From: Candidatus Aminicenantes bacterium
GTDB taxonomy: Bacteria > Acidobacteriota > Aminicenantia > Aminicenantales > JAFGBC01
Reading direction: 5' to 3'
DNA: 64,000 nt
Assembly (NCBI GenBank): GCA_963702005.1
Contig: OY969696.1
Coordinates: forward strand, 713,680 to 777,679
The notes under the pieces are model-generated. The model did not search any database and was not told the DNA's origin. It was given only the letters and a program-made list of their open reading frames with translations. Below, in pieces: positions 7,338-61,371 of the stretch; position 1 is the first letter of the stretch; each line of letters begins with the position of its first letter. A program made the translations under genes and the position numbers.

Positions 7338-8129
7338 TTATCCGGCCGGGTCGCTCCCGGTCGCGCCCTTGCCGGCTTTGCGCGCCCGGCGCTCCTTCCG
7401 TTCTTTTCCGAACAGGAAGGCGATTAGAATGCCCAGGGCGTAGAGGATCAGCATGGGGAGGGCGAGAATCGTCTGGTTGACCGGATCGGGAGTCGGCGTG
7501 ATGACGGCGGCGATGATGAAGACGGCCAAGATCGCATACTGGAAATTCTTGAGCATCCAGCGCGACGTCACGATCCCCATTCGCGACAGGAAGAAGATCA
7601 GGGTCGGCGTCTCGAAGACCGCCCCGATGCCCAGCAGGAGTTTGATGATCAGGCCGAAATATTCGTCCACCTTGATGACGGCCTGAAAATCCCGGCCCAT
7701 CTGGAGGAAAAAGCGGCAGGCGTAGGGGAAGACGATGAAATAGCCGAACAGAGCTCCCAGCAGGAAGAACGCCGTCGTGAACAGGACGAACGGCAAGACG
7801 TATTTCTTTTCTTTTTGGTAAAGGCCGGGGGCGATGAAGTACCAGAGCTGGAGGAAGACGACGGGCGCAGCCAGGAATGCCGCCGTCAGGAAGGCGACCT
7901 TCATGTAAAGGACGAACGGCGCCGTCAGGGCCGTGAAGGCCAGCTTCTGTCCGGGGGGCAGATATTTGGTGACCGGCCGGGCCAGGATGGTGAAGATGTC
8001 CTTGGCGAAGATCGCGCTGGGGATGACGGCGATGACGATCGCGATGAGCGCGTAAAAAATTCTTTTGCGGAGATCCTCGAGGTGCTCGAGGAAGGTCATC
8101 TCGTCAGGAGGTTTTTTGGCCTTCCCCAT
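7338..8129 (-). CDS. tatC: Twin-arginine translocase subunit TatC
   Basis: N-terminal FLEHLEDLRKRI motif. Six predicted TM segments. The size is typical for TatC. Confidence 0.8.
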   Translation of the reverse strand: MGKAKKPPDEMTFLEHLEDLRKRIFYALIAIVIAVIPSAIFAKDIFTILARPVTKYLPPGQKLAFTALTAPFVLYMKVAFLTAAFLAAPVVFLQLWYFIAPGLYQKEKKYVLPFVLFTTAFFLLGALFGYFIVFPYACRFFLQMGRDFQAVIKVDEYFGLIIKLLLGIGAVFETPTLIFFLSRMGIVTSRWMLKNFQYAILAVFIIAAVITPTPDPVNQTILALPMLILYALGILIAFLFGKERKERRARKAGKGATGSDPAG

Positions 8130-37229: not shown

Positions 37230-37314
37230 AATTCGGGGGACACACGACTTAATTCCGGACTCCTTCTTTATCGACAATAGCAGCTTGAGAATTAAGTCGT
37301 GTGTCCCCCGAATT
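37230..37314. repeat. Perfect 26-bp inverted repeat (aattcgggggacacacgacttaattc / gaattaagtcgtgtgtcccccgaatt) with a 33-nt spacer, overlapping the comEC stop codon
   Basis: Read directly: left arm 37230-37255, right arm 37289-37314. Confidence 0.8.
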
Positions 37315-39684
37315 TTCATGGGTGCGGATGGAGACGGACCGGCCGTCAGCCGTGATCTCGACGGCGCCGTCAAGGTCGGTCCGGTACAAGCGCACGCTGG
37401 CGTTTCTATACCTGGCCAAGACGTCCTCATTGGGCAGGCCGTAGCGGTTGCCGCTCCCTACCGACAGGACTGCGATTTGGGGCCGGACCGCCTCTAAAAA
37501 AAGCGGGGAGCTCGAGGACCGGCTTCCATGGTGGGGGATCTTTAGAACCAGGCTGGCCAGATCGGGAAAGGCCTTGACGATGCCTTCCTCGGCCGCCGTG
37601 CCGACGTCGGCTGCCAGCAGGCAGGAAAAACCGGTCATTTTAAGCCTTAGGACCATGGATAGGTCGTTGTCAGCCGGAGCCGTTTCAGGAAGCGGCTCCG
37701 CCGGATGAAGGACTTCGACCAGGACGGCCCCTTCTCGAAGAGTCTTCCCCCTCGACCAAACGGTCTGCACGGTTCCGGGCGAGAGAAGCCGTTTGAATTC
37801 CGCGTAGGAAGGATCGCCGGCCGACCGGACCGCTTCATGGAACTCCTTGACCTTGAAGTTGCGGACCACGGCTTTGAGTCCTTCCAGGTGATCGGGATGG
37901 GCGTGGGTCAGGACAACATGGTCGAGGGTCTTGATCCCCTTCCTCCACAGGAAGGGCGAGACGATCCGCTCTCCGATGTCGAATCCGTCCCCCGGGATGC
38001 CCCCTCCGTCCACGAGCATCTTCCTGCGGCCGGGGAATTCGACCAGGATGGAGTCGCCCTGGCCGACGTCGAGGAAGGTGATCCGCAGCCCGGGCGAGTA
38101 AGCCGGCGGGAACGGATAGGTGACGATGAGGATGAAAAAAACCGCGAACCCGGTTAAAATCGCGGCCTTGGCCCTCTTGCTTTTCAGGGGCGCCAGGAGG
38201 GCCAGAAGCAGGAGGTAATAGGCGATGATGAGAAGGGGATGGGGCGCGGGGATGCGGTAGGACATGAAATGGACCGGGTCGAGGAGGCCGGCGATCCAAA
38301 CGAACCCTTTCAAGCCGAACCGGAGGGCGGCGGCCAGCCACCCGGCCAGCGCAGTTGAGACAAAGGCCGTCAGGAAAAAGACGTAACCGGCCGCCATCAG
38401 TGCGGCGACCAGGGGGATGGCCGGCAGGTTGAGGAGGAAAGATGAGAACGTGACTCGGTTGAACGATGCCGCGATGACGGGAAGGACTCCGAGCTGGGCC
38501 GCCGTCGTCAGGGCCGTCATTTCCCCGAGTTTGAATGGGAGACGAGGCATCCGCTTGAGGAGAGGCTTGTAGAATAAAAGAATGCCTAAGGTGGCGAGAT
38601 AGGTCAGCTGAAACCCGGCGTCGAAGACCTGGAAGGGATTGAAGAGGAGGATGGCCAGGGCGCTGGCCGCGATCGTGTTGAGGAGGTGGACGTCCTTCCA
38701 GAGGAGCTTCCCGATGAAGAAGGCGGCGGCCATGACCGTGGCCCTGACGACCGATGCGTTTCCTTCGACGAGAAGGGCATAGCCGGCCAGAATCACGGTC
38801 AGGATTAGGTAGGAGGGGCGGGGAGAGACGCGAATGAGGCGGAGCAGGAAAAAGAGCAGGACCGCGATAATCCCGATATGGGCGCCCGAGATGGCCAGGA
38901 GATGGTAGAGCCCGGAGCGCTGGAGGACGAGGTTGACGGATTCGTCGAGACGTCCCCTCTCGCCGATGAGCAACGCCTCGAGAACGCCCCCTTCGGTCGA
39001 GAGGCCGGGCGGAGGGCCTTCGCCGAAATGCGCCTCGACCTTGCGTTGGAGGGCTTGCCGGGCCGATGAGATGGGCCCGAAGAAAAACGCCCAGGGTCCG
39101 GTCCCGATCTTCTTGACGAGAAGAGGGCTCTTGGAGAAGGCCGAGGCGTGGATCTTCCGGTTGCGCAGGATCCGGAGGTAGGGAGGAACCCTGAAGTTTC
39201 GGTCGGACGATGATACGCCGAGCTGGGCCGAAACCATGATGCGATCGCCGGTCCGGAGGGGAGGGAGCGGGTTCTCGGCCGAGAACGGAACGGTAACCCT
39301 CAAGGTTCCGCTGACGGCCGACTTGTCCGTCCCGGCCACGACCTCATCGACCTTGAGGTATAGCGTATCTTTGTCCTTGCCCCTTCCCGGCGATTGGGTC
39401 AAGGTTCCGTAGAAATCCGCAAACGCCGCGAGACGCAGCCGGTGCAGGCCGTTTTCCTCGTAGTTGCGCTCCTGCCAGACGAAGAGCAGCCCGCCCAGGA
39501 CGAGCGAAGCGGCCCAGATCATCCCCAGGCAGGCCTTGTCCTTCTTTCGCCAAGAAAAAATCCAGGCCGCGGCCAGGGAAACGCCCAGGGCGCCGGCCCA
39601 AGCTTGGAGGGGAAGAGGAACGGATGAGGCCGTCACGATTCCGAGAACGACGGCCGCCGCGACGAAGAGAAGGGGGAAAGCCAT
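37249..39684 (-). CDS. comEC: DNA internalisation-related competence protein ComEC/Rec2
   Basis: Multi-TM competence domain plus C-terminal metallo-beta-lactamase domain (VLTHAHPDHLEGL). 811 aa. Confidence 0.8.
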   Translation of the reverse strand: MAFPLLFVAAAVVLGIVTASSVPLPLQAWAGALGVSLAAAWIFSWRKKDKACLGMIWAASLVLGGLLFVWQERNYEENGLHRLRLAAFADFYGTLTQSPGRGKDKDTLYLKVDEVVAGTDKSAVSGTLRVTVPFSAENPLPPLRTGDRIMVSAQLGVSSSDRNFRVPPYLRILRNRKIHASAFSKSPLLVKKIGTGPWAFFFGPISSARQALQRKVEAHFGEGPPPGLSTEGGVLEALLIGERGRLDESVNLVLQRSGLYHLLAISGAHIGIIAVLLFFLLRLIRVSPRPSYLILTVILAGYALLVEGNASVVRATVMAAAFFIGKLLWKDVHLLNTIAASALAILLFNPFQVFDAGFQLTYLATLGILLFYKPLLKRMPRLPFKLGEMTALTTAAQLGVLPVIAASFNRVTFSSFLLNLPAIPLVAALMAAGYVFFLTAFVSTALAGWLAAALRFGLKGFVWIAGLLDPVHFMSYRIPAPHPLLIIAYYLLLLALLAPLKSKRAKAAILTGFAVFFILIVTYPFPPAYSPGLRITFLDVGQGDSILVEFPGRRKMLVDGGGIPGDGFDIGERIVSPFLWRKGIKTLDHVVLTHAHPDHLEGLKAVVRNFKVKEFHEAVRSAGDPSYAEFKRLLSPGTVQTVWSRGKTLREGAVLVEVLHPAEPLPETAPADNDLSMVLRLKMTGFSCLLAADVGTAAEEGIVKAFPDLASLVLKIPHHGSRSSSSPLFLEAVRPQIAVLSVGSGNRYGLPNEDVLARYRNASVRLYRTDLDGAVEITADGRSVSIRTHENSGDTRLNSQAAIVDKEGVRN

Positions 39685-39687
39685 GCG

Positions 39688-41019
39688 CTAAGAGCCGATT
39701 TTGGAAGGGGCGGGCTCGACCCTGCTTTGGAGCTCGAGGCCGTCGAGAACGAGATGGCAGAGGAGCTTGATGGCCAGGGGGAGACTACGTTCGTCGGGGT
39801 TGAACAAGGCGCTGTTGAGAGGGGCCGCGCTCGAGAGTCGCGGATTCCGGACGCCGAGGAGGAAGAAGAAGCCGGGAGCCTTCTGGGTGTAGAAGCCGAA
39901 ATCGTCCGAGATCGTCTGGGGGATGAGCGGAAGGACGTTGTCCTGTCCTTGGAGATCGACCAGGGTCGGCAGGAGGCTTCGAACGAGGTCGGCCAGGTTG
40001 ACGACGGGAGGGATCACCGGCTTGATATCGAAGGCATAATCCGCGCCGAAGGGAGTCACGACGCCCCTGACGATGCTTTCGATCAGGCGGGGCATCCGGC
40101 GCCGGTTGGCCTCGCTCAGGGTTCGGACCGTGCCCTCCAGCACCGCCTTGTCGGCGACCATCCCGGCGCTCGTCCCGCCTTCGATAAGGCCGACCGTCAG
40201 GACGATTGGGTCCTGAGGATCGGCCGTCCGGCTGGCGATGGACTGGAGGGCGACGACGATTTGGGCGGCCAGGACGATCGCGTCGATCCCTTCATAGGGG
40301 CGGGCGCCGTGGGCCGTCCGGCCCTTGACGGTGATTTGGAACCAGTCGGCGCCGGCCAGGACGGGGCCGCTCGAGACGAAGACTTGTCCGAGCTGCTCGG
40401 GCCAGACATGAAAGCCGACGATGGCCCTGACGGTCGGGTTTTCGAGAACGCCCTCGGCGATCATGGCCGCCGCCCCCGATTCGCCCCCGTCCGTTCCTCC
40501 CTCAGAGGCCGGCTGGAAGATGAACTTGACGTTTCCCGGAATGATATCCTTAAGGCCGGCCAGGACCATGGCCGTCCCCAGGACGGCCGAGATATGGATA
40601 TCGTGGCCGCAGGCGTGCATGATGCCGGGATTCAGGGATTTATAAGGAAGGTCATTGGCCTCCTGGATGGGGAGGGCGTCCAGGTCGGCCCGCAGGGCAA
40701 GCGTGCTCCCGTGGTCGCGGCCCCGGAGAAGGGCGACGACGCCGGTCTTGGCGACGCCGGTCTTGACTTCGAGGCCGAGCGAGACGAGCTTGGCCGCGAC
40801 GAGCTTGGCCGTCTCGACTTCCTCCCCGGCCAGCTCGGGATTCATATGAATGAAGCGGCGGATCTTGATGATTTCGGCCCGGCCTCGCTCGACGGCCTCG
40901 TCGATCCGCTGGGCGGTCGGCTTGTCGACGGCCCGGGCCGGTCCGGCCGCGAGGGCGCACACGGCCAGGGCCGATAGCATGGACGGAAGAATCGCCGCCG
41001 CTTTCCCATTCCCTCTCAT
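39688..41019 (-). CDS. M20 family amidohydrolase (aminoacylase/hippurate hydrolase-like), exported
   Basis: Signal peptide; HACGHD metal-binding motif; M20D-like size. Confidence 0.75.
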   Translation of the reverse strand: MRGNGKAAAILPSMLSALAVCALAAGPARAVDKPTAQRIDEAVERGRAEIIKIRRFIHMNPELAGEEVETAKLVAAKLVSLGLEVKTGVAKTGVVALLRGRDHGSTLALRADLDALPIQEANDLPYKSLNPGIMHACGHDIHISAVLGTAMVLAGLKDIIPGNVKFIFQPASEGGTDGGESGAAAMIAEGVLENPTVRAIVGFHVWPEQLGQVFVSSGPVLAGADWFQITVKGRTAHGARPYEGIDAIVLAAQIVVALQSIASRTADPQDPIVLTVGLIEGGTSAGMVADKAVLEGTVRTLSEANRRRMPRLIESIVRGVVTPFGADYAFDIKPVIPPVVNLADLVRSLLPTLVDLQGQDNVLPLIPQTISDDFGFYTQKAPGFFFLLGVRNPRLSSAAPLNSALFNPDERSLPLAIKLLCHLVLDGLELQSRVEPAPSKIGS

Positions 41020-41083
41020 AGACGCCTCTTGCGCCGCCCGGTGGCCCGGGCGGAATCCGAAACCGAAGCCGGACGCGCCGGCG

Positions 41084-41404
41084 CTATTTGGGCTCGTCCT
41101 TGGCGGGGCCCGGGGTCTTGGTCATCTCGTCGCGCTTTTTCTCGATGAAATCGCGGATGGCCTCGACGCCGTCCTGGGTCTTTTCCTTCACATACTGGAC
41201 GCCCTTCTCGGCCTCCCGGGCGATCTTCTCGTAGTTCTCCTTGGCCTTTTCGCCGGTCTTGACGGCTTGCTCCTTGAGCTTCTTCCGGGTCTCCTTGCCG
41301 CTGGCGGGGGCGAACAGGACGCCGAGCACGAAGCCGGCGGCGGCCCCGATCAGGAACGAAACGGCGACTTCAAGGGCGCCCGACCCTTTGTGATCGTCTG
41401 CCAT
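41084..41404 (-). CDS. YtxH-like protein
   Basis: N-terminal TM (LIGAAAGFVLGVLFAPASGKETRKKL) followed by a charged helical region. Confidence 0.55.
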   Translation of the reverse strand: MADDHKGSGALEVAVSFLIGAAAGFVLGVLFAPASGKETRKKLKEQAVKTGEKAKENYEKIAREAEKGVQYVKEKTQDGVEAIRDFIEKKRDEMTKTPGPAKDEPK

Positions 41405-41405
41405 T

Positions 41406-41765
41406 TCACTTCTCCTTTCGCTTCTTGAATTGCTGCCACCCCATGCGAAGGAGCGGGAAGAGGAACGGCCACCACTTCGAGGAGGGGCGGATGACTTTGG
41501 TCGTCACGAACAGGGCGATCTCCGAAGCGGACTCCGTCATCTTCCGGGTGGCTTGGATGGTCCCGGCCAGGTCCTCGACGGCCAGGTTGACCTTGCGCTC
41601 GGTCTCCTGGAGGTTCCGGAGGAGGGCCGTCGCCTCGGCCATGGCTTTTTGGGCCTCCCGGGCCGTCCGGCTGAGCTGGAGGAAGAGCCGGGCCAGGAAG
41701 GCGAGGGCCACGACGGCCGCGACGGTCAAGACCAGCCACAGGGCCTGGCTGAGGGTGATCTGCAT
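41406..41765 (-). CDS. DUF948-like membrane protein
   Basis: N-terminal TM plus coiled coil. Commonly paired with YtxH. Confidence 0.5.
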   Translation of the reverse strand: MQITLSQALWLVLTVAAVVALAFLARLFLQLSRTAREAQKAMAEATALLRNLQETERKVNLAVEDLAGTIQATRKMTESASEIALFVTTKVIRPSSKWWPFLFPLLRMGWQQFKKRKEK

Positions 41766-41811
41766 GGTAACCTCAAAAATAGACCAAAAAGGGGGGCTTT
41801 GTCAATCGACG

Positions 41812-42429
41812 TCAGACGGCAGGCTCGGAAGGGACCGGTGTTTTTTTGCCGGGCGGCCAGAGCACCTTGTTGAGGCCGGTCAGGCCGAAGGCGGCCTCCA
41901 TCCGTTCCAGGAGGTTGGGGTATAGGCCCTCGGCTCCGGCCTTGACCGCGTCCTCCCACTCGGCGAGGAGCTCGGAAACCTCGAAGTCGTGCCCCTTGCG
42001 GCCGAGATGCTGGAGGCCCCGCAGGGCCTGCCAGTGGGTGATCATGATAAGGGCCAGGGCGCCGAAGAAGACGTTGGGGCCGGGGAGAAGCGTGGCCAGG
42101 CCGCTCAAGGGGAGGAGCAGGGTTTCTCCGACGAGGAGCAGGATATGGCGGGTCCGCTGCTTCTGGAGGAACAGGAAGAAGCGGAAGCGGACCTTCTTAT
42201 CCTCGGTCCGGGCGGAGACGAGGATGCGGACCGAAGGACCCTCGAGCCGGGCGACCCGGGCCAGGGCCTGCTCCTGACGCAGGGAGCGCTGAGGGAGGAG
42301 GAGAAGCTTGGCTTTGGCTTTGTCCCAAAGCCTTCGCCAGCGGGTGGTACGGACTTCGATCGGCCGAACGGGCTCGGTCGAGAAGAAGCTGTACTTATGG
42401 CCGGCGTCTCGGACGAAGAAGAATGTCAT
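41812..42429 (-). CDS. Hypothetical membrane protein (real start at MTFFFVRDAGHKY; the upstream Arg-rich ORF part is an artefact)
   Basis: Coding-like only from the internal Met. Two predicted hydrophobic helices. Confidence 0.4.
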   Translation of the reverse strand: MTFFFVRDAGHKYSFFSTEPVRPIEVRTTRWRRLWDKAKAKLLLLPQRSLRQEQALARVARLEGPSVRILVSARTEDKKVRFRFFLFLQKQRTRHILLLVGETLLLPLSGLATLLPGPNVFFGALALIMITHWQALRGLQHLGRKGHDFEVSELLAEWEDAVKAGAEGLYPNLLERMEAAFGLTGLNKVLWPPGKKTPVPSEPAV

Positions 42430-42470
42430 GCATTCTCTGGTACGCGCCGCCGCCGCGAAAGTTGGCCGGC

Positions 42471-44505
42471 TCAGAAGCTCCGCGCGCAGATCCCGCCGCC
42501 CGCGGTCCCGACGTAGATCTTGCGGGCGGCGCCGTCGACCTGGATCGAGTTCACGCTCTTGACCGGCAGGTCGCCGGAGAGGTCCGTCCAGGTCGCCCCC
42601 TTGTCGGCGCTGTGCCAGAGGCCGTTCCAGTTCCCGACAAAAAGCTCGTTCGGATTGAGCTTGTTGACGGCCAGGCAATCGCCGGAATAGGGCGCGTTGG
42701 CGAGCTTGGTCCAGGAGCCGCCGCCGTCCGTGGAGGCGAAAATGCCTTCCCACCCGGTCGCGGCATAGACCGTGGCGGGAGAGCCGCCGGACACGGCCAG
42801 GGCGTCGATCGGGCACCCGGTCGAGGGCGGGCTCAACGAGGTCCAGTTGGCCCCGCCGTCCGTGCTTTTATGCAGGACCGGCGAGCCGGAGGAGGTCGTG
42901 CCGGCGACATAGATCGTCCGGGTATTGGAGGGGTCGAACGCGGCGGCGCAAGCCTGGCTGTTTTCATCGGTCCGAATCCGGACCTGGGTCCAAGTCAGGC
43001 CGCCGTCGGTCGAGATGAAAACGCCCATGTAATTTTTGCCGCCGACCACGATGTATCCCGCCGCCAGGACGCGGTTGGGAACGGCCGGGTCGACGACCAG
43101 GATCAGCCCCTGGCAGCCGGCGCCGGGAAGAAGCTGTTGAAAGTTGGCGCCTCCGTCTACAGACCTGTAGACGCGGGGGGTGCTTCAGCCGTAGGTCGAG
43201 AGATAAACCCGGTTCGGGTCCGCGCTGGGGACGGCCAGGTCGGCGATGTTGTCGCTCCCCAGGAAATCGGGGAGCTTCGTCCAGCTCGCGCAGGCGTTCG
43301 CGCTCTTGAAAACCCCGACCGACGTCGCCGCCGCGTACGCCGTGGCCGGAGCGATCGCCGAGGACGAAGAGCCGGGCATCCGGAACCCCCCGATGTTCGT
43401 CGCCAGGATCCCCGCCTGGGACGGCAGGAAGGTTTTCCCGGCGCTGGTGCTTTTAAAGACCCCCGCCGTCGCGGAGACGTGAACCGTGCTTCCCGAGATC
43501 AAGACCTTCGACGCGAGTCCGGCGAAGCCGGTCCCGCATTTGGTCCAATCCGTTCCGCCGTTCGTGCTCTTCCAGACTTCCTTGGACCCGCCGCCGTACA
43601 CGATGCTGGGATGGACCTTGTTCGAAGGCCAGGGACTCCAGGTAAGCGATATAAGACGGGCTGTTCTGCTTCTTCCAAGTGGTCCCGGAGTTGGCCGATA
43701 TCGCCACCCCCGCTACCGTGTTTTGGTAGGACACCAAGATCCGGGAGGGATTCGAGGGGTCGATGGCGACCGTGTAAGCATAGTTGACTATGGTGTGGAG
43801 ATCGTTCATGAATGCGGGCGTGACGTTCTTCCAGGCCCCCCCGCCGTTCGTGGAGCGGAAGACGCGGGCGCGATAATTCGAGCCGTCGTAGAAGTACCCG
43901 CAGAAGAAAATGGTGGACGGATTCTTGGGGGAGATGGCGATATCGCGGCCGTAGGCGTAGCTCGACGTCGCCTCCATCGTCTTATGGCTCCAGGTTTGGC
44001 CGCCGTTCGTCGTCATGAAGACGGCGAGGCATGTCTTCCAACTGGACGTGTCATAGGTATAACTCCCCGCGACGAAAATGACCTTGGGATTTTGGGGGTT
44101 GATGGCGATCCTCCCGGAATAGCCCTGCCGGTATTGGCCGAACGGAAGCTTCGTGAAGGTCGACCCTTGATCGACCGATTTATAAAGTCCGTCCGAGGCC
44201 AGGATATAGATCGTCCGCGGATTTTTAGGGTCCAGGACGAAATCGTAAGCGTAATCGCCGAGGATGGACTTGAGGGTCCAGCTCTTGCCGTTGTTGACGG
44301 ACCGGTACACCAGCCCGCGCTCGGACACCGCATAAAGCTCGGAGGGCGATTTGAGGTTGCGGGCGATGCCCATGATGTTGCCGCCGGTGGGGCCGAGCTG
44401 GGTCCAGACCGCCGCTTGATCCACAGGGCGGGCGGCGCGCATGCCGGGGCCGCCGATGAGAAGGGCGCCAAGGATTGCCCAGATATAAACGGCCGGTCTT
44501 TTCAT
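42471..44505 (-). pseudogene. BNR/Asp-box repeat beta-propeller protein, paralog D: frameshift near 43450-43600 plus in-frame TGA at 43185-43187
   Basis: Three ORF pieces (43453-44505, 43185-43601, 42471-43049) with a signal peptide and repeated S-x-D-x-G-x-T-W motifs. The last two pieces are in the same frame, separated by one TGA. Confidence 0.6.
43154..43187 (-). other. In-frame TGA plus SECIS-like hairpin (CGUCUACA-GGUC-UGUAGACG) of paralog D
   Basis: The hairpin starts 11 nt 3' of the UGA on the coding strand. The loop is GGUC. It is coded by VYRSVD using the rare codons GUA, AGG and UCU. Confidence 0.6.
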
Positions 44506-44644: not shown

Positions 44645-46666
44645 CTAAAACGTCCGCTTCCAGATGCCTCCACCTTGGGTCCCGACGTAGAGGGTGTGGT
44701 TCGTCGCGTTGAAAACGAGCTGATTTACGTACGGAACGGGCAGTCCCTGGCTGACGTCGGTCCAGGTCAGGCCCCGGTTCTGGCTGTAAAAAACGTTCTG
44801 GTTGTTTCCGACGAACACTTGGTTGGGATTGTTCTTGTTGACGGCCACGGCCCGGAAACCGTAGCTGTATGTTGTGAAGGTGCACTTGGTCCAGGAGGTC
44901 CCGCCGTTCGCACTCCGCCAGAGCTCACTGTTGGTCCCGACATAGACGATATTCGAGTCCTGGGGATCGACGGCGATCGCCTGGGGCGGGTATTGAATCC
45001 CGTTCGTGATCGCGGTCCAGTTGACCCCCCCATCCGCGCTCCTATACACGAGAGCGCTAGAGTTGGAGGTATATCCGCCGACGTAGAGGATGTTCGCGTC
45101 GCCCGGCGCGACCGCCACCACGGTCGATTGGCTGCCCTCTTGGGTGCTGATCCGGATGGGCGTCCAGTTCGTCCCCCCGTCCTTGGAGACGACGATTCCC
45201 ATCGACGTGACGCTCCCTTGTTTGACTGATCCGGTAATGATAAGTTGGCTGAAGTTCTGGGGATTCGCGTAGAGGCTTCCGTATCGGCACTCGTAGAGAT
45301 CGTAAATCTGTTGGAACGTCCGTCCTCCGTCTACAGACCTGTAGACGAATTCGCCCTGCGGTCAGCCGCTGGGCTTGACATAGATGGTATTGGGATTCGT
45401 GGGGTGAACGACGATGCTGGCGACGAGCGTGCTGCCCACGAATGTTCCGCAGGTCGTCCAGGCCGATCCCCCATTGGCCGTCTTAAAGAGGGCATATCCC
45501 GTGATCCCGGCGTAGATGGTGCTCGGCGAAGAAGGCGAGACGCCTAAAGCCGCGATGTTCGAGCCGCGGATGCCGGCGTGGCTGGGATTCCAGGTGGAGC
45601 CGCCGTTCTTGCTCAGGAAAATCCCAACCTGGCTTGCCAGGTGGACATTGGACCCGGCGGCCAGGATTATGCGGCTCTCTCCATGGATGCCGTCGCTGTA
45701 AGCTTTCCAGGTGATCCCGCCGTCCGTGCTCTTGAGGACGCTGTAGACGTAATCGAGCTCGCCTCCGGCATAAAGGATCTTGGAGTTGGCGGAATCGGCC
45801 GTGATGGAGTACACATACGTGATCCCTGGAGTCTGTTGGGCCTTCCAGCTTCCGCCGGCGTTCGTCGTCCGGGCGATGCCGTTGTTGTGGGCCACCCAGG
45901 CTTTTTTCGGGTCGTGGGCGTCTACATAGATGGCGTTACAGGCGGGATAGGTTCCGTCGAAAATCGCGGCGCCGCCGACGCTCGTCCAGGTGCTTCCTCC
46001 GTTCTTCGAAACGTAGGCGCGGCCGGTATCGACGCTGTTCTTATAGTCGTAGCCGCATAGATAAATGTAATTGGGGTTGGCCTTGGCAAAAACGACGTCA
46101 TATCCATAGCCGGAATCGGCCGAGTTCGGGAACCTCTTGACGGTCCAAGACGCGCCGCCGTTCGTCGTTTTAGCGACGGCGATATCGCTTTTGTAGTTCA
46201 CGTTGTCATACCGGTATGACCCGGCGATCATAATGATCTGGGGATTGGCCGGGTGGACGGCGATCCGGCCGTACCAGCCGGTAAATCCGGCCGGGAATGC
46301 GCGAACCGTGAAATTTTTGCCCTTGTCCGTGCTCTTGTGAAGATAGCCGTAGCTGAGGACGTAGATCGTGCTCGGGGTCTTGGGATCGACAGCGAGGTCG
46401 TAGATCGCCTGGGAGACGATGGATTGGCGCGTCCAGCTCGCGCCGCTGTTCGTGGATCTCCAAACCTGACTCGGCCAGCTCGAGCTCGCGGCATAGAGCT
46501 CGGCCGCCGACTTGGGATTCCGGGCCAGGCCGCGGATATCCCCTCCGTAGGGGCCGACCGGGGTCCAGGAACCGGCCCGGTCGGGCCGCTCGATCGGGGC
46601 GGAGCCGCGCCCGAAGAGGAAGACGGCGCACAGGACCGCCAGGATGATGACGACGGCTTTTTTCAT
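44645..46666 (-). CDS. Secreted BNR/Asp-box repeat beta-propeller protein, paralog A; single in-frame TGA at 45362-45364 (candidate selenocysteine or read-through)
   Basis: The N-terminal ORF (signal peptide MKKAVVIILAVLCAV) ends at TGA. The next 53 codons have no stop and read PQGEFVYRSVDGGRTFQQIY, a canonical BNR motif. They are in the same frame as the C-terminal ORF 44645-45202. Confidence 0.65.
45328..45364 (-). other. In-frame TGA plus SECIS-like hairpin (CGUCUACA-GGUC-UGUAGACG) of paralog A
   Basis: Perfect 8-bp stem with GGUC loop, 14 nt 3' of the UGA. Confidence 0.6.
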
Positions 46667-46762: not shown

Positions 46763-48784
46763 TTAAAACGTCCGCTTCCAGATGCCTCCACCTTGGGTCC
46801 CGACGTAGAGGGTGTGGTTCGTCGCGTTGAAAACGAGCTGGGCTACGTACGGAACGGGCAATCCCTGGCTGACGTCGGTCCAGGTCAGGCCTCGGTTCTG
46901 GCTGTAGAAAACGCCCTGGCTGGACCCGACAAACACCTCGTTGGGGTTGTTGTTGTTGACGGCCACAGCATCGAAATTGTAGGCGTTGGTCGGGAACGTG
47001 CATTTCGTCCATGAGGCCCCGCCGTTCGAACTCCGCCAAACTTCCCAAAAGGTCCCAACATAGACGATGTTCGGATCCTGGGGATCGATGGCGATAGATT
47101 GGGGCACGTATTGGATTCCGTTCGTGACGGAGGTCCAGTCAACCCCTCCGTTCACGCTCTTATAGACAAGCCCGGTATAGGTAGCGCTCTGGCCGCCGAC
47201 ATAGAGGAGGTTAGCGTTGCTGGGCGCGACCGCCGCGACGTTCGATTGGCTGCCGTCCTGGCTGCAGATTTTGACCGGCGTCCAACTCGACCCCCCGTTC
47301 GTCGAGAACACGATTCCCATCGAGGTTACGCCCCCCTGCTTGACCGAGCCCGTGATCAGGAGGAAGTTGATGTTCTGGGGGTTCGCGTAAAGGTTTCCGT
47401 ACCGGCATTCGTAGAGATCGTAAATCTGCTCGAATTTCCGTCCTCCGTCTACAGACCTGTAGACGAATTCGCCCTGGGGTCAGCCGCTGGGCTTGACGTA
47501 GATGGTGTTCGGGTTCGAGGGATGGACGACCACGCTGGCGACGAGATCGCTGCCGTAGAATTCGGTACAGGGCGTCCAGGCGGAACCCCCGTTGACCGTC
47601 TTGAGCAGAGCGTAGCCTTGGATTCCGGTGTAAATCGTGTTCGGCGAGGAAGGGGCGATGGCGAAGGCTTTGATATTTGCCGCCCGGATTCCGTTGTGGC
47701 CGGGGTTCCAGGTCGTGCCGCCGTTCTTGCTCAAGAAGATTCCCGCTTGCGTCGCCTGGTGGACCTTGGAGCCGGCGGCCAATATTTGGCGACATTCTCC
47801 GTAGAGGCCGGTGCTCGAAGCCTTCCAGGCATTACCCCCGTCGGTGCTCTTGAGGCTGCTGTAGACCAAATTGTACTTGCCGCCCGCGTAGAGGATATTC
47901 GGGTTGGAGGAATCGGCCGCGATGGCCGTAACATGCGTGATCTGGGGCGTCTGCTGGGCCTTCCAGCTCCCGCCGGCGTTCGTGGTCCGGGCGATGCCGC
48001 TGTCATGGCCCACCCAGGCTTTTTTCGGGTCGCGGGGATCGACGTGAATGGAGTAGCAGGCAGGGTAGCTGTTGTTGAAGACGGCCGACGAGCCGACGCT
48101 CGCCCAGGTGCTCCCGCCGTTCTTGGAAACGAAGACCCGCGCGGCTGTGACGCTGTTTTTCTGATCATACCCACAGAGATAAATGTAATTGGGGTTGCTT
48201 TTGGCGAATACGATGCCGCGGCCATAACCATAGTCGGTCAGATTGGAAAGTCTTTTGAGCGTCCAGGTCGCGCCGCCGTTCGTCGTCTTGGCGACGGCGA
48301 TTTCGGAATGCCAATCGGCGGTGTTGTAATAATAAGACCCGACGACCATGATAATCTTGGGATTAGCCGGGTGGACGGCGATCCGGCCGTTGTAGGACTG
48401 GAAATCGTCCGGGAACCGATGGTTCGAGAAGGTCTTGCCTTTATCCGTGCTCGTGTAGAGATAACTTTCGCTGAGGAGGTAAATCGTGCTCGGGGTCTTG
48501 GGGTCGATGGCGAGGTCGTAAATCCATTGCATGACGATCGATTGGCGCGTCCAGCTGGCGCCGCTGTTCGTGGATCTCCAAATCTGGCTCGGAGAACTCG
48601 AGCTCACGGCGTAGAGTTCGGCCGCCGACTTGGGATTCCGGGCCAGGCCTTGGATATCCCCTCCGTAGGGGCCGAGCGGGGTCCAGGAACCAGCCCGGTC
48701 GGGCCTGTCCGCCGGGCCGGGGCTGCGCCCGAATAGAAAGACGGCGCACAGGACCGCCAGGATGATGACGACGGCTTTTTTCAT
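46763..48784 (-). CDS. Secreted BNR/Asp-box repeat beta-propeller protein, paralog B; in-frame TGA at ~47480-47482
   Basis: Same architecture as paralog A, about 85% identical. The N-terminal and C-terminal ORFs are in the same frame, 53 codons apart. Confidence 0.65.
47445..47482 (-). other. In-frame TGA plus SECIS-like hairpin of paralog B
   Basis: cctccgtctacagacctgta on the plus strand gives the coding-strand GUCUACA-GGUC-UGUAGAC hairpin. The exact base coordinates are ±1. Confidence 0.55.
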
Positions 48785-48963: not shown

Positions 48964-51000
48964 TTAAAAATCCCTCCGCAGAATGCCGCCCCCCGATGTT
49001 CCGACGTAGACCTGGCGGGCGGCGCCGTCGATCTCTATCGATGTCACGCCCCTGACGGGAAGACCCTCCGAAATGTCCGTCCAGGTTGCTCCTTTGTCGT
49101 TGCTGTAGGAAAAGAAGCTCCAGTTCCCCGCGAATATTTCGTTTGGGTTGGACTCATTGATGGCGATGCAATTGCATCCCCAGGGGCCGTTCTCGAGCTT
49201 GGTCCAGGTGTCCCCGCCGTTCGTGGAGACGAAAATACCCGCCCAGGAGGTTCCCAGATAGATCGTGCCCGAGACGCTCGGATCTACGGCGATGGCCTCG
49301 ATCCTGGCTGAGGACGAGGGAGGAGTCAGCTCGGTCCAGCTCGCGCCCCCGTCCGTGCTCTTGTGCAGGGCCGGGGCATAGGAGGATTTATAGCCGGCGA
49401 CATAGATCGTATTCCTGTTCGAAGGGTCGAACGCCGCGACTTCCAGGCAGCTGCCCGTATCGTTCCTGATCTTGATTTGTTTCCAATCGGATCCGCCGTC
49501 CGTCGACAGGAAAATCCCCATTACATATTGACTGCCGCTGACGACATATCCTCCCGCTATGATGTGCTTCGGATCCGCGGGATCGGTCAGGAGGATGAGT
49601 CCTTGGCAGCCGGCTCCGGGCAGAAGTTGCTTAAAGCTTTTGCCTCCGTCTACGGAACTGTAGACGCGGGGGTTGCTTCAGCCGTAGGTCGAGAGGTAGA
49701 CCCTGTTCGGGTCCGCGTTCGGAACGGCGAGATGAGCGATGCTGTCGCTTCCCGCGAAATTGCCGAGCTTCGCCCAGCTCCTGAAGCCGTTCTCGGTTCT
49801 AAAGATGCCGTAATTGGTGACCGCGGCATAGGCTGTGTTTGCGGAGGCGGCGCTCGCCGATGAGCGGGGATATTGGAAATCCGCTATTTCGGCGGCTTGA
49901 ATTCCCGCGTGGGAGGCTTTAAAAGAGCGGCCCGCGTTCGTGCTCTTGAAGACGCCCGCCGTGGACGTGACCTGAAGCGTATTCCCCGAGGCAATGATCC
50001 TCGATACGGTGCCGCAGAGGACGTTCGAGAATGGCGTCCAATGATGTCCGCCGTCCTTGCTTTGATAGATCGTTTTATAGGCTCCTCCGTAGAGGACATT
50101 GGGATTGGTTTTGTCGAGGGAAAGGGACTGGATATTATAAAGGCTCTGAGGATTCGTCTGGTTCTGCCAACTGACCCCGGCGTCGGCCGTAAAGGCCACT
50201 CCGCCATAATACGGGACGAACAATCTCGCGGCGTTCGAGGGGTCGACGGCGACGGCGTAGGCCTGGCCGTAAAATCCCGAGCCCGCGTTCATGAAGGCGG
50301 GAGTGATGTCCTTCCAGGTCCCGCCCGTATTCGTGGAGCGGTAGATGCGGGCGATGCAGCCCGTGCCGGCCCAATAATAGCCGCAGAAATAGACCGTGGA
50401 CGGAGCCTGGGCGGGAATGACGATGTCGCGCGCGCAGCCCGAATCCGAAGTCGTGTCCATCGTCTTCTGGGTCCAGCTTTTGCCTCCGTTCGTCGATTTG
50501 AAGACGGCCAGGCACGATTTGTTGGCGCTTGAATTGGTGGTATAGCTTCCCGAAACGAAGACGATATTCGGATTTTGGGGGTGGACCGCGATTCGGCCCA
50601 GAAAGGCGTATCGATGGCCGCCGAGCGGGAATTTCGTGAATGTTGTTCCTCTATCGGCGGACTTATAGAACGCTTCCGAGGATAGGACATAGACTGTCCG
50701 CGGATTCTTCGGGTCCAGCGCTATATCGGAAGCATCGATGTCGAGGTGGGACTGGCGTGTCCAACTCCCGCAGCCGTCGGCTGACCGGAAGACTTGCCCC
50801 TGCTTGGTTAGGACGTATAGTTCGCTCGGAGATTTCGGGTGGCGCGCGATGGAGATGATATTTCCGCCGTTCGGCCCGAGTCCGGTCCAGACCGAAGCGG
50901 CCTCCGGAGACGACGATGGAGAGGGCTCCGGTCCGCGAAGGCGGCCGTAGAGCACGGCGGCGCAGAAGACGGCTAAGATGACCCCCATGGCTTTTTTCAT
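48964..51000 (-). CDS. Secreted BNR/Asp-box repeat beta-propeller protein, paralog C; in-frame TGA at 49678-49680
   Basis: N-terminal ORF (MKKAMGVILAVFCAAVLYG signal peptide) and C-terminal ORF in the same frame. The read-through sequence is SNPRVYSSVDGGKSF. Confidence 0.65.
49647..49680 (-). other. In-frame TGA plus SECIS-like hairpin of paralog C (CGUCUAC-AGUUCC-GUAGACG; the loop differs from GGUC)
   Basis: Hairpin 11 nt 3' of the UGA; 7-bp stem conserved; loop variant. Confidence 0.5.
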
Positions 51001-51753: not shown

Positions 51754-53163
51754 ATGAAAGAATCTCTTTTTCGGCTGATCCCATCTGTGGACGCCCTCCT
51801 CAATCATCCGGAGGCGCGCCGGCTCGCCGAGGCGTACGGGCGGCCCTTGGCCTTGGACGCCGTCCGCGACGAGCTCGAGGCGGTCCGGGCCGAAATCCAA
51901 ACGGCCGGCGCCGCATCATCCTTGGCCGAGAAAGACCTTGCCCCGGAGGCCTTGCTCGACCGAGTCCGGGCGCGGCTCGAGCGGAAGCTCGCCCCCTCGC
52001 TGGGACGCACGATCAACGCGACCGGGATCGTCATCCATACCGGGCTGGGGCGGGCCGTCCTGGCTCCCGAGGCGCGGGAGGCCCTGGCGCGCGTGTCCCA
52101 AGGATACTCGCAGCTCGCCGTGGATCTTGAGACAGGTCAGCGCGGCCATCGCGACGTCCATTACGCCTCCCTTCTCCGCGAGCTGACCGGCGCCGAGGCC
52201 GGTTTCGCCGTCAACAACAACGCCGCGGCGACCGTCCTCCTTCTCAACACCCTGGCCAAAGGCAAGGAGGTCATCCTCTCGCGCGGCCAGCTTGTCGAGA
52301 TCGGGGGTTCGTTCCGGATGCCCGACGTCATGGAGACGTCGGGGGCCGTCCTGCGCGAGGTCGGGACGACCAACAAGACCCATCTCCGCGACTACGAGGC
52401 GGCGATCTCGGACCGGACCGGCATCCTCCTTCGCGTCCACCACTCGAACTACCGGATCATGGGCTTCGCCGAGGAGCCGGGGATCGAGGAGCTGGTCGAG
52501 CTCGGCCGCAAGCACGGCCTCCCCGTCGTCGACGATATCGGAAGCGGGGCGCTGGTTGACCTCAAAGATTACGACCTCGAGACCGAGCCACTCGTCCAGC
52601 GGAGCGTCCGGGCCGGCGCCGACGCCGTCTGCTTCTCGGGCGACAAGCTCATCGGCGGGCCCCAGTCGGGGATCATCGTCGGCAGGGCCAAGGTCGTCGG
52701 GCGCGTCAAGAAAAACCCGCTGGCCCGCGCTTTCCGGATCGGGAAGCTGACCGCGGCCGCCCTCGAAGCGACCCTCAAGCTCTTCCTGGACCCGGACCGG
52801 CTGAGGGACCGGCATCCCGTCTACCGGATGCTGGGGCTGGACGCGAAGGAGATCGAACGGCGGGCGCGCGCCGCGTCGGATACGCTGGCGCTCGGCCTGG
52901 CCGGGCGGGCCCGCGTTTCGGTCGTAGAGGACCGGTCCCAGGTCGGAAGCGGCTCGGTCCCGGTTGAGACCCTCCCGACCTTCGTCCTCAAAATCGAATC
53001 CGCGTCTCTTCCGGCCGAGGAGCTGGCCCGCCGGCTGCGGCGCGGCGCCCCGCCCGTCTTCGGCCGCGTCCACAAGGACGCGCTCCTTCTCGACTTTCGG
53101 ACCGTCTTCCCCGAAGAGGACGGCATCGTCATCGACGCCGTCCGGGCGGCCGTCGAACCTTAA
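51754..53163 (+). CDS. selA: L-seryl-tRNA(Sec) selenium transferase (selenocysteine synthase)
   Basis: [18 protein letters not shown] matches the SelA PLP-lysine motif SGDKLLGGPQAGII. 469 aa. Confidence 0.85.
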
Positions 53164-53178
53164 GGGAGAGAACCGGCC

Positions 53179-54384
53179 ATGGTCGACCTCGAAAAGCGCC
53201 GCCGGATCATGGGGCGCTCCATCAAGCTCGGGCACTGCATCTGCAACCCCAAGGACCCCTGTCCCTGCGACCTGTTCAAGCGGAAGAACGTCTGCCTCTG
53301 CGCGGGCGAGCGCGAAGAGGAGGCGGCCGAGGACGTCGCCCTGACCAAGCTCGTCGAGAACGCGGGCTGCGCCTCCAAGGTCTCCCAGGAATTTCTCAAA
53401 CAGGCCCTCGAGGGGCTGCCCGCCGTCTTCGACCCGCGGGTGCTCGTCAGCTCCTCGACTTGCGACGACGCCGGGATCTTCAAGCTCAACAATACGACCG
53501 CGCTCGTCCAGACGGTCGACGTCTTCTCGCCCTGCGTCGACGACCCCTACGTCTTCGGCCAGATCGCCGCGGCCAACTCCGTGAGCGACGTCTATGCCAT
53601 GGGCGGAAAACCCCTGACGGCCCTGTCCATTATCGGATTCCCCTCGGACCGGCTCTCGCCCCGGATCATGAACAAGATGCTCCAGGGCGGAATCGACAAG
53701 CTCGGCGAGGCCGGGGTCCCCGTCCTAGGCGGCCACAGCATCAAGGACGCCGAAGTCAAATTTGGGTTCGCCGTCACCGGGGTCGTCCGGCCCGATCGCA
53801 TCCTGACCAACGACAAGGCCCGGCCCGGGAACGTCCTTGTCCTGACCAAGCCGATCGGGACGGGGCTGGCCTGCTTCGCCCAACAGCTCGGGAAGGCGGA
53901 CGCGGCGCTCCTCGAGGCGACCGCCCGCTCCATGACCGAGCTCAACGGCCCCGCCGCCGAGGAGGCCGTCAGAGCCGGCGTGCGGGCCGCGACCGACGTG
54001 ACCGGATTCGGTCTCCTCGGCCACTTGGCCGAGATGGCTGTCCAGAGCCGGGTCACGGCCGAAATCTGGGCCGAGGAAGTGCCCCTGTTCAAGGGCGTCC
54101 TCGACCTCGCCCGCAAGGGGGTCGTCTCGGGCGCCGTCGAGCGGAACCGGGAATACGCGATGCGCTTCGTGACCAAGGCCCCGGACGTCGGCGAAGAGTG
54201 GGAGGCGGTCCTCCTCGATCCCCAGACCTCGGGCGGTCTTCTTCTTGCCGTTTCCCGGGCGCGCGCGGCCGGGCTCCTCAAGAGGCTCGCGGCGCGGGGG
54301 ATCGCGTCGGCGCGGATCATCGGGCGCATCGCAGAGTCGTCCGAGGGAGCGATCCGTGTCCGACTCCGGCCGGAGGGTTCTTAA
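53179..54384 (+). CDS. selD: Selenide, water dikinase (selenophosphate synthetase), Cys-type, with a Cys-rich ~45-aa N-terminal extension
   Basis: [11 protein letters not shown] corresponds to the SelD active-site (G)C/U motif. PurM-like body (DDAGIF...GGHSI...). The extra N-terminus is [26 protein letters not shown]. Confidence 0.85.
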
Positions 54385-54395
54385 GGGGAGAGGTC

Positions 54396-56319
54396 ATGGC
54401 CGGGCTCGACAAAGACCACGTCATCTTCGGCACGGCCGGCCACATCGACCACGGCAAGAGCTCGCTGGTCAAGGCCCTGACCGGGACCGATCCCGACACG
54501 CTTCCTGAAGAAGAAGCTCCGGGGGATGACGATCGAGCTCGGGTTCGTATTCCTGGACCTCCCCGACTACGAGAAGCAGATCGTCTTCATCGACGTCCCC
54601 GGCCACGAGCGGTTCGTCAAGACGATGGCGGCCGGGGCCTCGAACATCGACGCCGCCCTCCTGGTCATCGCCGCCGACGAGGGCGTATCGGTCCAAACCC
54701 GCGAGCACTTCGACATCCTCCGTCTCCTCGACGTCCCGCTCGGGATGGTCGTCCTGACCAAGGCCGACCTGGTCGACGCGGACCGGATGGCCGAAGTCCG
54801 CGGCGACGTCGTCCGTTTCGTCGCGGGCTCCTTCCTCGAGGGCGCTCCCCTTCTGGCCGTCTCGTCCGTGACCGGCGCCGGGATCCCCGAGCTCAAAGCG
54901 GCCCTGGTTGAGATGGGGCGGAAAGTGCGGCGGCGGAGCGACACGGGCTTCTTCCGGATGCCGGTCGACCGCGTCTTCACCATCCAGGGCTTCGGCACGG
55001 TCGTGGCGGGAACGGTCCTGGGCGGCGCGGTCGGCGTCGGCGACCGGATCGAGGTTTTTCCCGATCGGCTTCCGGCCCGGGTCCGGGGCGTTCAAGTCCA
55101 CGGCCGCGGCGCCGAGCGGAGCGGGATCGGGACACGGACGGCCCTCAACCTGATGGACGTCAAGAAGGAGGATCTGCGGCGGGGACAATGCGTCGCCGCG
55201 GCCGGCAGCCTGACGCCGACCAACCGGCTCGACACGGAGCTTCTCTTGCTGGCCGACGCCGGCAAGGAGCTCAAGCACCGCGAGCGGGTCCGCCTCCACG
55301 TCGGGACGGACGAGGTCATCGCCCGAGTCGTCCTTCTCGACCGGGCCGCGGTCCAGCCGGGCGAGAAGGGCTTTGTCCAGTTCGTCCTAGAGGCGCCGAC
55401 CGTGGCGCTTCCCGGCGACCGGTTCGTCATCCGGACCTTCTCGCCGCTGATGACGATCGGAGGAGGCCGGGTCCTCGACCCGACGCCGGGCCGGCACAAA
55501 CGGTTCGACGATCAGGTCATCCAGGGGTTGGGCCGGCTCGAAGGGAGCCTCGACGAGGTCGTCGAACAGCTTTTAGTCAAGGCCCGTTTCGCGCCCCAAT
55601 CTCTGAGCGAGCTGGAGTTGAGCCTGGGCGGCCGCGCCAAGGAGGTCAAGGAATCCGTCGCCGCGCTCGTCGCGGCGGGGAAGACCGTCGCCGTCCCGTT
55701 CGAGAAGGAGGAGCGCTACCTTCACGCCGGCGCCGCGGCCGAGCTCGCCGGGAGGCTCGTCGGACTCGTCAAGGACTACTTCGAGAAGTTCCCCCACAAG
55801 CTGTCGATGCCCCTCGGCGACCTCCGCTCCCAGTTCCTGAAGCTGAGCGAGGCGGCCGTCTTCCGGAAACTCCTGGAGGAGCGGGCGGCCCAAGGCGCCT
55901 TGGACGCCCAGGGGACCGAGGTCCGCCTCCCCGAGCGCGGCGTTCGGATGACGGCCCGCGAGCAGGAACTGGCCCGCCGGATCGAGGAGGCCTATCTCAA
56001 GGCCGGCTACGACAGTCCGCTCGATGACGAGCTGTGCCGGACGTTGGGCGCCGAGCCGCCCCTGTTCGAGAAGGTCCTGTTCAGCCTCTACGACCAGAAA
56101 AAGCTGATCCGTCTCAACCCCAAGGTCACCTACCACGTCGATACGGTCGCCAGCATGAAGGCGCTCGTCCAGGAGCACCTCAAACGGAAAGGGGGCATCA
56201 CGATCGCGGAGCTCCGGGATACGATCAAGCTTTCGCGCAAGTACGCGCAGGCCGTCCTCGAGTATTTCGACCGGGTCGGGTTGACCCGGCGCGTCGAGGA
56301 CCGCCATGTGCTAAAATAG
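54396..56319 (+). CDS. selB: Selenocysteine-specific elongation factor SelB, with an apparent +1 frameshift at the GAAGAAGAAG run (~54505-54520)
   Basis: Frame 0 from ATG 54396 reads [39 protein letters not shown] (SelB G1 motif). Frame 1 from 54514 reads [15 protein letters not shown]...DVPGHERF and carries the remaining G-motifs and the C-terminal winged-helix SECIS-binding domains. Confidence 0.8.
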
Positions 56320-56331
56320 ACGACGACCCGC

Positions 56332-56427
56332 GGGAGGGTATAGGTTCCGGTGGGCCTTCTGGACTTCAAATCCAGCACGGGGCCGTGAAACGTCCCGGGT
56401 GGGTTCAACTCCCACACCTTCCCGCCA
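56332..56427 (+). tRNA. selC: tRNA-Sec (selC), anticodon TCA
   Basis: 96 nt. 8-bp acceptor stem (GGGAGGGU/ACCUUCCC, one G·U). Anticodon loop CUUCAAA. Long extra arm. T-loop GGGTTCAACTCCCAC. CCA encoded. Lies 12 nt after the selB stop. Confidence 0.85.
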
Positions 56428-61154: not shown

Positions 61155-61371
61155 AAAAACACCCTCCGCCTGGAATCAGCAGGGTCCGAATCTGATTCCC
61201 GATTATTTTATATAGGAGGGCGGTCGGGGAGTCAACCTTTCGACACCCATAGCCGTTTCCGGCTTAGTATGAGTGCTGCAAGGCTGCTCCCCGGCCCCGG
61301 ATTGATTTGTGGAAGCTTTTCTGGTAAACAAGGGAGACAGGAACCGACATCGCGGGAAGGAGGTAGGGCTC

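Follow-up and report, generated by a model that had tools for sequence, protein, structure and literature searches.

Five propeller genes with an in-frame UGA

We analysed a stretch of 64,000 nucleotides (nt) of contig OY969696.1 (positions 713,680 to 777,679 of the forward strand; assembly GCA_963702005.1, Candidatus Aminicenantes bacterium), hereafter called the window. It contains five paralogous genes (A to E) for BNR/Asp-box beta-propeller proteins, each with an in-frame UGA that is followed by a short hairpin, together with a set of genes for selenocysteine (Sec) synthesis and insertion. The hairpins are very probably bacterial Sec insertion sequence (SECIS) elements located inside the coding region, and their hosts are predicted to form an uncatalogued family of secreted beta-propeller selenoproteins; judging from the sequence, we give this reading a probability of about 0.88. 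The features on which it rests are the following.

42471–44505, minus strand: paralog A, UGA at 43185–43187, N-terminal part (43453–44505) in another frame
43154–43173, minus strand: predicted SECIS hairpin of paralog A, starting 11 nt 3' of the UGA
44645–46666, minus strand: paralog B, a 673-residue secreted BNR/Asp-box double propeller (434 residues, the predicted Sec, 238 residues)
45328–45347, minus strand: predicted SECIS hairpin of paralog B, CGUCUACA-GGUC-UGUAGACG, in the codons for V-Y-R-S-V-D of the Asp-box YRSVDGG
45362–45364, minus strand: in-frame UGA of paralog B, the predicted Sec codon, followed by a 14-nt spacer and the hairpin
46763–48784, minus strand: paralog C, UGA at 47480–47482, 73% identical to B across the N-terminal part
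47446–47465, minus strand: predicted SECIS hairpin of paralog C, starting 14 nt 3' of the UGA
48964–51000, minus strand: paralog D, UGA at 49678–49680
49647–49666, minus strand: predicted SECIS hairpin of paralog D, 7-base-pair (bp) stem and loop AGUUCC, 11 nt 3' of the UGA
51754–53163, plus strand: selA, selenocysteine synthase (Pfam SelA, E = 9.9e-143)
53179–54384, plus strand: selD-like selenophosphate synthetase (AIRS and AIRS_C domains; Cys type, AGCASK motif)
54526–56319, plus strand: selB, Sec-specific elongation factor with winged-helix SECIS-binding domains
56332–56427, plus strand: tRNA-Sec, anticodon UCA (ARAGORN; Rfam RF01852, 73.8 bits)
58689–61154, minus strand: paralog E, a double propeller with a C-terminal Flg_new_2 domain, UGA at 59886–59888
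59852–59871, minus strand: predicted SECIS hairpin of paralog E, CAUCUACA-GGUC-UGUAGAUG, 14 nt 3' of the UGA

In paralog B, the UGA is the lone in-frame stop of a 673-codon frame that encodes a signal peptide and 13 Asp-box (SxDxGxxW) repeats, and the database entry for this gene is a 434-residue protein (P0001). The coding strand at 45328–45364 (minus strand) reads, 5' to 3', UGA CCG CAG GGC GAA UUC GUC UAC AGG UCU GUA GAC G. Likewise, the UGA is the sole in-frame TGA of each of the other BNR paralogs, and in all five homologous propeller sequence runs on in frame for 237–398 codons downstream of it. The N-terminal two thirds of paralog A (43453–44505) are off-frame from the remainder, yet 51% identical to paralog D, which indicates a single frameshift near 43615–43625. 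Paralog A, whose UGA and hairpin are intact, may be a pseudogene, or the assembly may be in error here.

The hairpins of A, B and C are all CGUCUACA-GGUC-UGUAGACG with 8 bp, and 10 bp can be formed in B (over 45326–45349) as well as in C. In paralog E the second pair is A-U in place of G-C, a compensatory change that leaves 8 bp. The initial annotation of this DNA had described a single stem of 7–8 bp for all copies; the length stands, while the sequence does not apply to E, which reads CAUCUACA...UGUAGAUG. It had also counted four GGUC loops and one AGUUCC loop, as we find, but the latter belongs to paralog D (49647–49666, 7 bp) and not to the copy it called C. The spacer between UGA and hairpin measures 11 nt in A and D and 14 nt in B, C and E, in agreement with the 11–14 nt first noted, and RNAfold recovered the hairpin in 5 of 5 copies. 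With the U of UGA as position 1, the loop G-G-U occupies positions 23–25 in A and 26–28 in B, C and E; in D, the AGUUCC loop covers positions 22–27 and its G-U-U positions 23–25. The loop G and U thus lie 23–28 nt from the U of UGA, as had been proposed, and within the spacing of SECIS elements. The minimum free energy (MFE) of the bare 20-mers is −9.6 kcal/mol for A, B and C, −8.7 kcal/mol for D and −8.2 kcal/mol for E. When the window was searched for the pattern CGTCTACANNNNTGTAGACG with up to three mismatches, five matches were obtained versus 0.10 expected from shuffles, and 0 of 100 shuffles reached five.

The selA-selD-selB-tRNA-Sec block (51754–56427) lies between paralogs A–D and paralog E. 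Its SelB gives a full-length alignment with the E. coli SelB of the ribosome complex 5lzb, the best solved match. The selB open reading frame (ORF) taken from ATG 54526 aligns only from E. coli SelB residue 36, and the true start probably lies upstream of 54526, most likely at a non-ATG codon. The SelD-like protein is not itself a selenoprotein and has about 60 additional residues, rich in Cys, at its N-terminus (53179–53360).

Comparison with known SECIS elements

The bSECISearch consensus of Zhang and Gladyshev, as given in PMC13188914 (Fig. 2A legend), describes a bacterial SECIS by a loop of 3–9 nt on an upper stem of 4–16 bp, a G in loop position 1 or 2 that is usually followed by G or U, a distance of 16–37 nt from UGA to loop and an MFE of −7.5 kcal/mol or lower. 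The window hairpins agree with this model throughout. They have a 4-nt loop, GGUC, on 8 bp (A, B, C, E) or a 6-nt loop, AGUUCC, on 7 bp (D); among 26 homologous sites, 25 have the GGUC loop; the distance from UGA to loop is 19 nt (A, D) or 22 nt (B, C, E); and all five bare 20-mers lie below the energy limit. Each hairpin is situated within an ORF, right after an in-frame UGA beyond which the protein continues in frame, and selA, the selD-like gene, selB and tRNA-Sec are all in the window. With loop, stem, spacing and energy in range and the Sec machinery at hand, the SECIS reading of the initial annotation appears, as a whole, to be correct. Consensus SECIS elements are variable in sequence, whereas the 20-mer found here is near-invariant across subfamilies with just 33–40% protein identity, in part because it is locked to the Asp-box peptide. 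Rfam searches of the whole window at the gathering threshold, and of 45200–45450 at E-values up to 10, returned tRNAs and two chance hits, and no match to the hairpin.

A likeness to the hairpin of E. coli fdhF had been pointed out from the start, and it was confirmed in E. coli genomes, where the fdhF sequence UGACACGGCCCAUCGGUUGCAGGUCUGCACC is present in 5419 of 5426. It shares with the window hairpins an 8-nt core (CAGGUCUG), the GGUC tetraloop and the A-U closing pair, the window copies reading ACA-GGUC-UGU and fdhF GCA-GGUC-UGC. Like fdhF, the window genes have the element within the coding sequence, directly after the UGA. The loop nucleotides G22, G23 and U24 of fdhF compare with positions 23–25 in copies A and D. 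The minimal fdhF element, a 17-nt upper stem-loop, starts 11 nt after the UGA (PMC8659212), exactly as the hairpins of A and D do, those of B, C and E being 3 nt farther. The host gene, by contrast, is unrelated to formate dehydrogenase.

Selection on the hairpin and competing explanations

DNA of relatives was gathered without using the hairpin as a probe, by a protein-pattern scan of metagenomes (loci L081–L090) and by exact look-up of truncated database proteins (L161–L175). The combined sample comprises 26 distinct sites from at least four subfamilies with 33–42% protein identity. No tRNA-Sec was found in 26 related loci, all of which are short. UGA and hairpin were both present at 26 of 26 homologous sites; free disruption of the stem by synonymous variation in orthologues, the outcome that the initial annotation had named as contrary to its reading, was not seen.

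The codons of the hairpin are nearly frozen in this sample. UAC and GUA were observed at 26 of 26 sites, AGG at 25 of 25 sites with Arg, UCU at 25 of 26, and GAC at 23 with GAU at the other three, while the two Gly codons that follow the hairpin make use of all four synonyms. Codon entropy amounts to 0, 0, 0.24, 0 and 0.52 bits in the hairpin columns versus mostly 0.7–1.7 bits in the other residue-conserved columns (about 400 codons). The three GAU sites are exactly the three that have AUC (Ile) for GUC (Val); this exchange of a G-C for an A-U pair is the only compensatory change that the protein code readily permits. In local codon usage, AGG (10–14% of Arg), UCU (5% of Ser) and GUA (1.6–6% of Val) are rare. 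The claim that the stem is built from rare codons is thus right for these three but wrong for GUC, UAC and GAC, which are the most used codons, with 60–83% of their amino acid. The synonymous combination CGG...UCG, whose codons are commoner and which would close the loop with a C-G pair, occurs at 0 of 26 sites, and neither GUG nor UAU, which would introduce G·U wobbles, was seen at any. Since all these options are unused, the A-U-closed GGUC loop and the fully Watson-Crick stem appear to be selected as such, and this pattern points to sequence-specific reading of the A-U-closed loop. Together, position, loop sequence and synonymous conservation support the view that selection maintains the hairpin RNA and not the protein alone. 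Selection on RNA had been proposed before; the proposal is supported by codons frozen across 26 sites amid variable neighbouring synonymous sites, while the arguments from rare codons (half of the stem codons are the preferred ones) and from stability had to be corrected.

Several observations speak against a SECIS function and have to be weighed. The total MFE of the 51–61 nt after the UGA is unexceptional (Z from −0.65 to −3.0 versus dinucleotide shuffles), and 5–52% of synonymous recodings fold equally well or better. Folding, recommended earlier as a check, therefore recovered the hairpin in all copies but gave no exceptional total energy relative to shuffles and recodings. Total MFE is uninformative here because GC-rich coding sequence folds anyway, and it was replaced by a test for SECIS-compliant hairpins. 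Covariation is minimal: one of eight pairs shows a compensatory change (in three sequences, possibly one event) and five pairs are invariant. What is conserved is thus sequence as much as structure; however, low covariation is not evidence against structure, because the protein code blocks most compensatory changes. Two homologs (L090 and L162b) have a C·A mismatch, with a bare 20-mer of only −4.5 kcal/mol. At the Sec site, most close full-length homologs (about 20) carry not Cys but D, A, T, G, N, E, F, P or S, which is atypical of selenoproteins. Finally, E. coli SelB needs a bulged U17 together with the loop G23 (PMC8659212). A counterpart of this bulge is absent from the window hairpins, whose stems are fully paired as a perfect helix of 8–10 bp, and for this reason we file them as bacterial SECIS elements and not as the strict E. 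coli type. In crystal structures of the Moorella thermoacetica SelB–SECIS complex, the RNA is a regular hairpin without an E. coli-type bulge, and the last winged-helix domain recognises the loop G-U.

The same facts could be accommodated by a hairpin that works independently of Sec, causing ribosome pausing or near-cognate readthrough or termination at the UGA and so setting the ratio of the 434-residue to the full-length product without selenium. Stop-codon decoding can indeed be modulated by downstream hairpins, and the many non-Cys residues tolerated at the site in close homologs leave a specific chemistry there unproven. In addition, bacterial Sec decoding is reported to be inefficient (PMC8659212), so a truncated product would be expected anyway. 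We nevertheless consider a Sec-independent role improbable. Loop and spacing follow the rules of SelB recognition and not those of a generic stable structure. The stem falls short of maximal stability, and GUG, UAU and CGG/UCG, all of them commoner and able to preserve or strengthen the pairing, are never used; the Sec machinery is adjacent; and the truncated product would hold an incomplete propeller, the UGA being inside the second one.

The SECIS reading must also be set against the view that the RNA has no function, the palindrome being a by-product of the VYRSVDG peptide together with descent or gene conversion, and the UGA a true stop or a shared inactivating mutation. That view agrees with the invariance of YRSVD wherever the hairpin is present, with the five of eight pairs that never vary and with the frameshift in paralog A. 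Yet the peptide has 2304 possible encodings, and the joint frequency of the three rare codons used is about 1e-4 under local usage. When each peptide was synonymously recoded 20,000 times according to local codon usage, just 9–30 recodings (0.05–0.15%) gave a SECIS-compliant 8-bp Watson-Crick hairpin. The codons are kept in subfamilies of low identity where other synonymous sites are randomised, and the flanks differ, so that a conversion tract would need to be exactly 20 nt. Nor does the stop look like decay: 74 homologs (90%-identity clusters of 390–480 residues, from several phyla) are annotated as ending with Gly right at the UGA site, with an intact in-frame propeller beyond it, and 18 of the best 150 representatives at 50% identity end likewise. 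We regard an explanation without RNA function as very unlikely.

Other BNR motifs provide an internal control for the SECIS reading. About 50 other Asp-boxes in the five genes, including VYRSADGG, VYRSTDAG and VYKSVNGG, form no such hairpin and are written with AGC/UCC/UCG, GUG and CGG/CGC, which bears out the earlier remark that the palindrome is confined to the motif after the UGA. The hairpin is also missing from the homologous Asp-box of non-Sec paralogs that lie beside Sec-type genes (two cases, L170). No DNA encoding full-length non-Sec homologs turned up at an identity of at least 95%; a looser tblastn search yielded three usable non-Sec paralogs as controls. In one non-Sec paralog with Asn at the site (L089, 2184–2402), GUC UCC AGG UCC CUG GAC is a decayed, register-shifted remnant of the hairpin, suggesting that Sec was lost from a Sec-containing ancestor.

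The UGA recurs at the same position in a distant clade (clade II: WOR-3, Fermentibacteraceae and other candidate lineages), within LEGxG-U-GNAELYKSTDGGSVW; it was found there at six distinct DNA sites, next to the 26 of clade I. One WOR-3 homolog is entered in GenBank as a 410-residue hypothetical protein. When genome contigs were scanned with an alignment of the N-terminal part, most matches were distant BNR proteins, and only L001, L002 and the partial L003 were useful. In clade II the hairpin is CAGACGG-[C/A]GG[G/U]U-CCGUCUG, lies four codons farther along the same Asp-box and places its loop, with GG(G/U), 32 nt from the UGA. A different hairpin sequence under the same rules is as predicted for a SECIS element, and not for a palindrome driven by the protein. 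From the UGA to +48 nt, the loci L001, L002, L176, L177, L179 and L181 contain two conserved hairpins, this one and GCUCU-AUA-AGAGC. The two variable loop positions co-vary, being C..G or A..U; a covariation count in the clade II hairpin gave no covarying pair.

As a near-perfect 20-bp inverted repeat on both strands, the clade I element could in principle function in the DNA and not in the mRNA: a dimeric protein might bind it, or it might be a recombination site or a terminator-like element. This is most unlikely given its location within genes in a constant reading-frame register, with a UGA 11 or 14 nt before it in every case, the asymmetric loop that is conserved as GGUC on the coding strand, the lack of a T-run 3' of the hairpin and the different hairpin of the distant clade, where a loop with GG then G/U again follows the same UGA. 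Genome-wide reassignment of UGA to a standard amino acid (Trp or Gly), which exists in some bacterial lineages and would make the hairpin irrelevant to decoding, can be set aside with near certainty, as TGA is the commonest terminator in the window (29 of 44 long ORFs, many of them with high G+C content at third codon positions), the window G+C content is 55–69%, tRNA-Sec and selB are present, and, when the window was scanned for TGA with a GGU-initial loop after it, the BNR paralogs alone had long open frames flanking the TGA. By the same scan, no other selenoprotein gene with this kind of hairpin was found in the window.

The host proteins and their predicted decoding

If the hairpins are SECIS elements, decoding would follow the ordinary bacterial mechanism. 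With the ribosome at the UGA, the hairpin 11–14 nt downstream would lie just outside the mRNA channel. Its A-U-closed GGUC loop, 19–22 nt from the UGA, would serve as the binding site for the C-terminal winged-helix domains of SelB, whose gene lies 5–11 kb away; SelB-GTP-Sec-tRNA(Sec) would thereby be tethered at the A site and outcompete release factor 2, selenocysteine would be inserted and translation would proceed into the second propeller. The Gly codon directly 5' of the UGA (45365–45367 in paralog B) is GGC at 23 of 26 sites and GGU at three, far less variable than other Gly codons; this near-fixation may reflect a context effect on UGA decoding.

The same 18 nt encode both the hairpin and V-Y-R-S-V-D of the Asp-box. 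Because the RNA signal resides in Asp-box codons, the codons and, in the Sec-containing members, also the peptide YRSVD are fixed. A SECIS within an Asp-box would thus be a clean natural case of dual coding, in which codon choice and peptide are both frozen. More speculatively, a SECIS may be capable of repeated rebuilding from Asp-box codons, as the near-invariant GGUC hairpin and in a second register in WOR-3 and Fermentibacteraceae; the RNA signal would then dictate the protein motif and not the reverse. The unused synonymous C-G closing pair gives a hint at what the SelB of this lineage reads. For SECIS prediction in GC-rich genes, folding energy is uninformative and synonymous-site conservation decisive.

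While the mechanism is ordinary, what is new is an uncatalogued, secreted family of predicted selenoproteins without a thioredoxin fold that has expanded beside the sel genes. None of the 119 prokaryotic selenoprotein families listed in PMC13188914 (Table 1, May 2026) is a BNR, Asp-box or Sortilin-like propeller or a GH74 protein. Searching NCBIfam with the host proteins gave only F510_1955 glycosylhydrolase (just above the cut-off), Ycf48 and BamI and no selenoprotein model, Pfam assigned the host protein to Sortilin-Vps10/BNR, and our literature search found no paper linking selenoproteins with BNR repeats. With its secreted, non-thioredoxin proteins, the family would bring to the roughly 119 catalogued ones a fold and a cellular location seldom seen among them. 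It would be a widespread family, present in the candidate phyla Aminicenantes (probably), WOR-3 and Fermentibacteraceae, whose full-length predicted selenoproteins of about 670–820 residues are misannotated as fragments of about 410–460 residues.

Clustering of selenoprotein genes is a known pattern, as in grdA-grdB, the SAO system and the Tso operon (PMC13188914, section 9). Several predicted selenoprotein genes also stand together here, additionally beside the Sec machinery. Unlike those systems, which bring together different enzymes of one pathway, the window shows a tandem expansion of one family, with four adjacent members and a fifth beyond the sel genes. A sixth Sec-type paralog (P0043, LAGG-U-GEDDVYRSVDGA; locus L161, Logan contig ERR10755944) belongs to the same 4.31-Mb source contig, outside the window, which brings the genes of this type in the source genome to six or more. 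With five of these flanking the sel genes, the family would represent a heavy genomic investment.

The fold of the host protein was taken from the AlphaFold (AF2) model of the Cys homolog P0022 (predicted local distance difference test, pLDDT, 90). The model is a tandem 7-bladed propeller whose top PDB matches are GH74 xyloglucanases (template modelling score about 0.65); the host protein is thus predicted to share the two-propeller fold of GH74 and BNR tandem-propeller proteins, with an identity of just 16–18%. Cys448 of P0022, equivalent to the Sec, is placed by the model in a loop between two strands of a second-propeller blade. The UGA is found 3' of eight Asp-boxes, within the second propeller and not at a domain boundary. 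For this reason, an isoform switch at such a boundary under the control of selenium was considered but rejected.

Only three full-length homologs (P0022, P0025 and P0034) have a Cys aligned to the UGA, although such pairing of Sec with Cys is the rule among known selenoproteins. In distant homologs the loop carrying the Sec site is missing altogether. A Cys is found 15–35 residues upstream of the Sec site in 72 of 74 Sec-type homologs, with conserved upstream Cys at −29, −24/−23 and −20, and many also have one about 25 residues downstream; from these positions, a redox role of the Sec/Cys pair is plausible. We suggest with considerable reserve that Sec might have a functional role in a new kind of selenoenzyme outside the cytoplasm, with a GH74-like tandem propeller in place of a thioredoxin-like fold, where it would form a selenol/thiol pair with the upstream Cys and be serviced by the AhpC/TSA and redoxin-type proteins encoded beside E-type genes; this enzymatic role remains doubtful.

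Transcription of paralog E diverges from that of a gene for a 681-residue protein with AhpC-TSA/Redoxin and DUF6029 domains (61309–63354, plus strand). The pairing of an E-type gene with an AhpC/TSA-redoxin gene recurs in the metagenomic contigs L164, L167 and L172, together with an outer membrane protein (OMP) beta-barrel, more redoxins and a 4Fe-4S protein. These neighbouring redoxins hint at a redox partnership with the E-type protein. At the other end of the cluster, the genes near paralog A for ComEC, an M20 peptidase and a Mit_KHE1-like protein (37249–42816) are syntenic with positions 8044–13222 of L162 (ERZ15185093 NODE_295), where they also stand beside a Sec-type BNR gene, which indicates that the BNR cluster occupies a conserved genomic position in related genomes.

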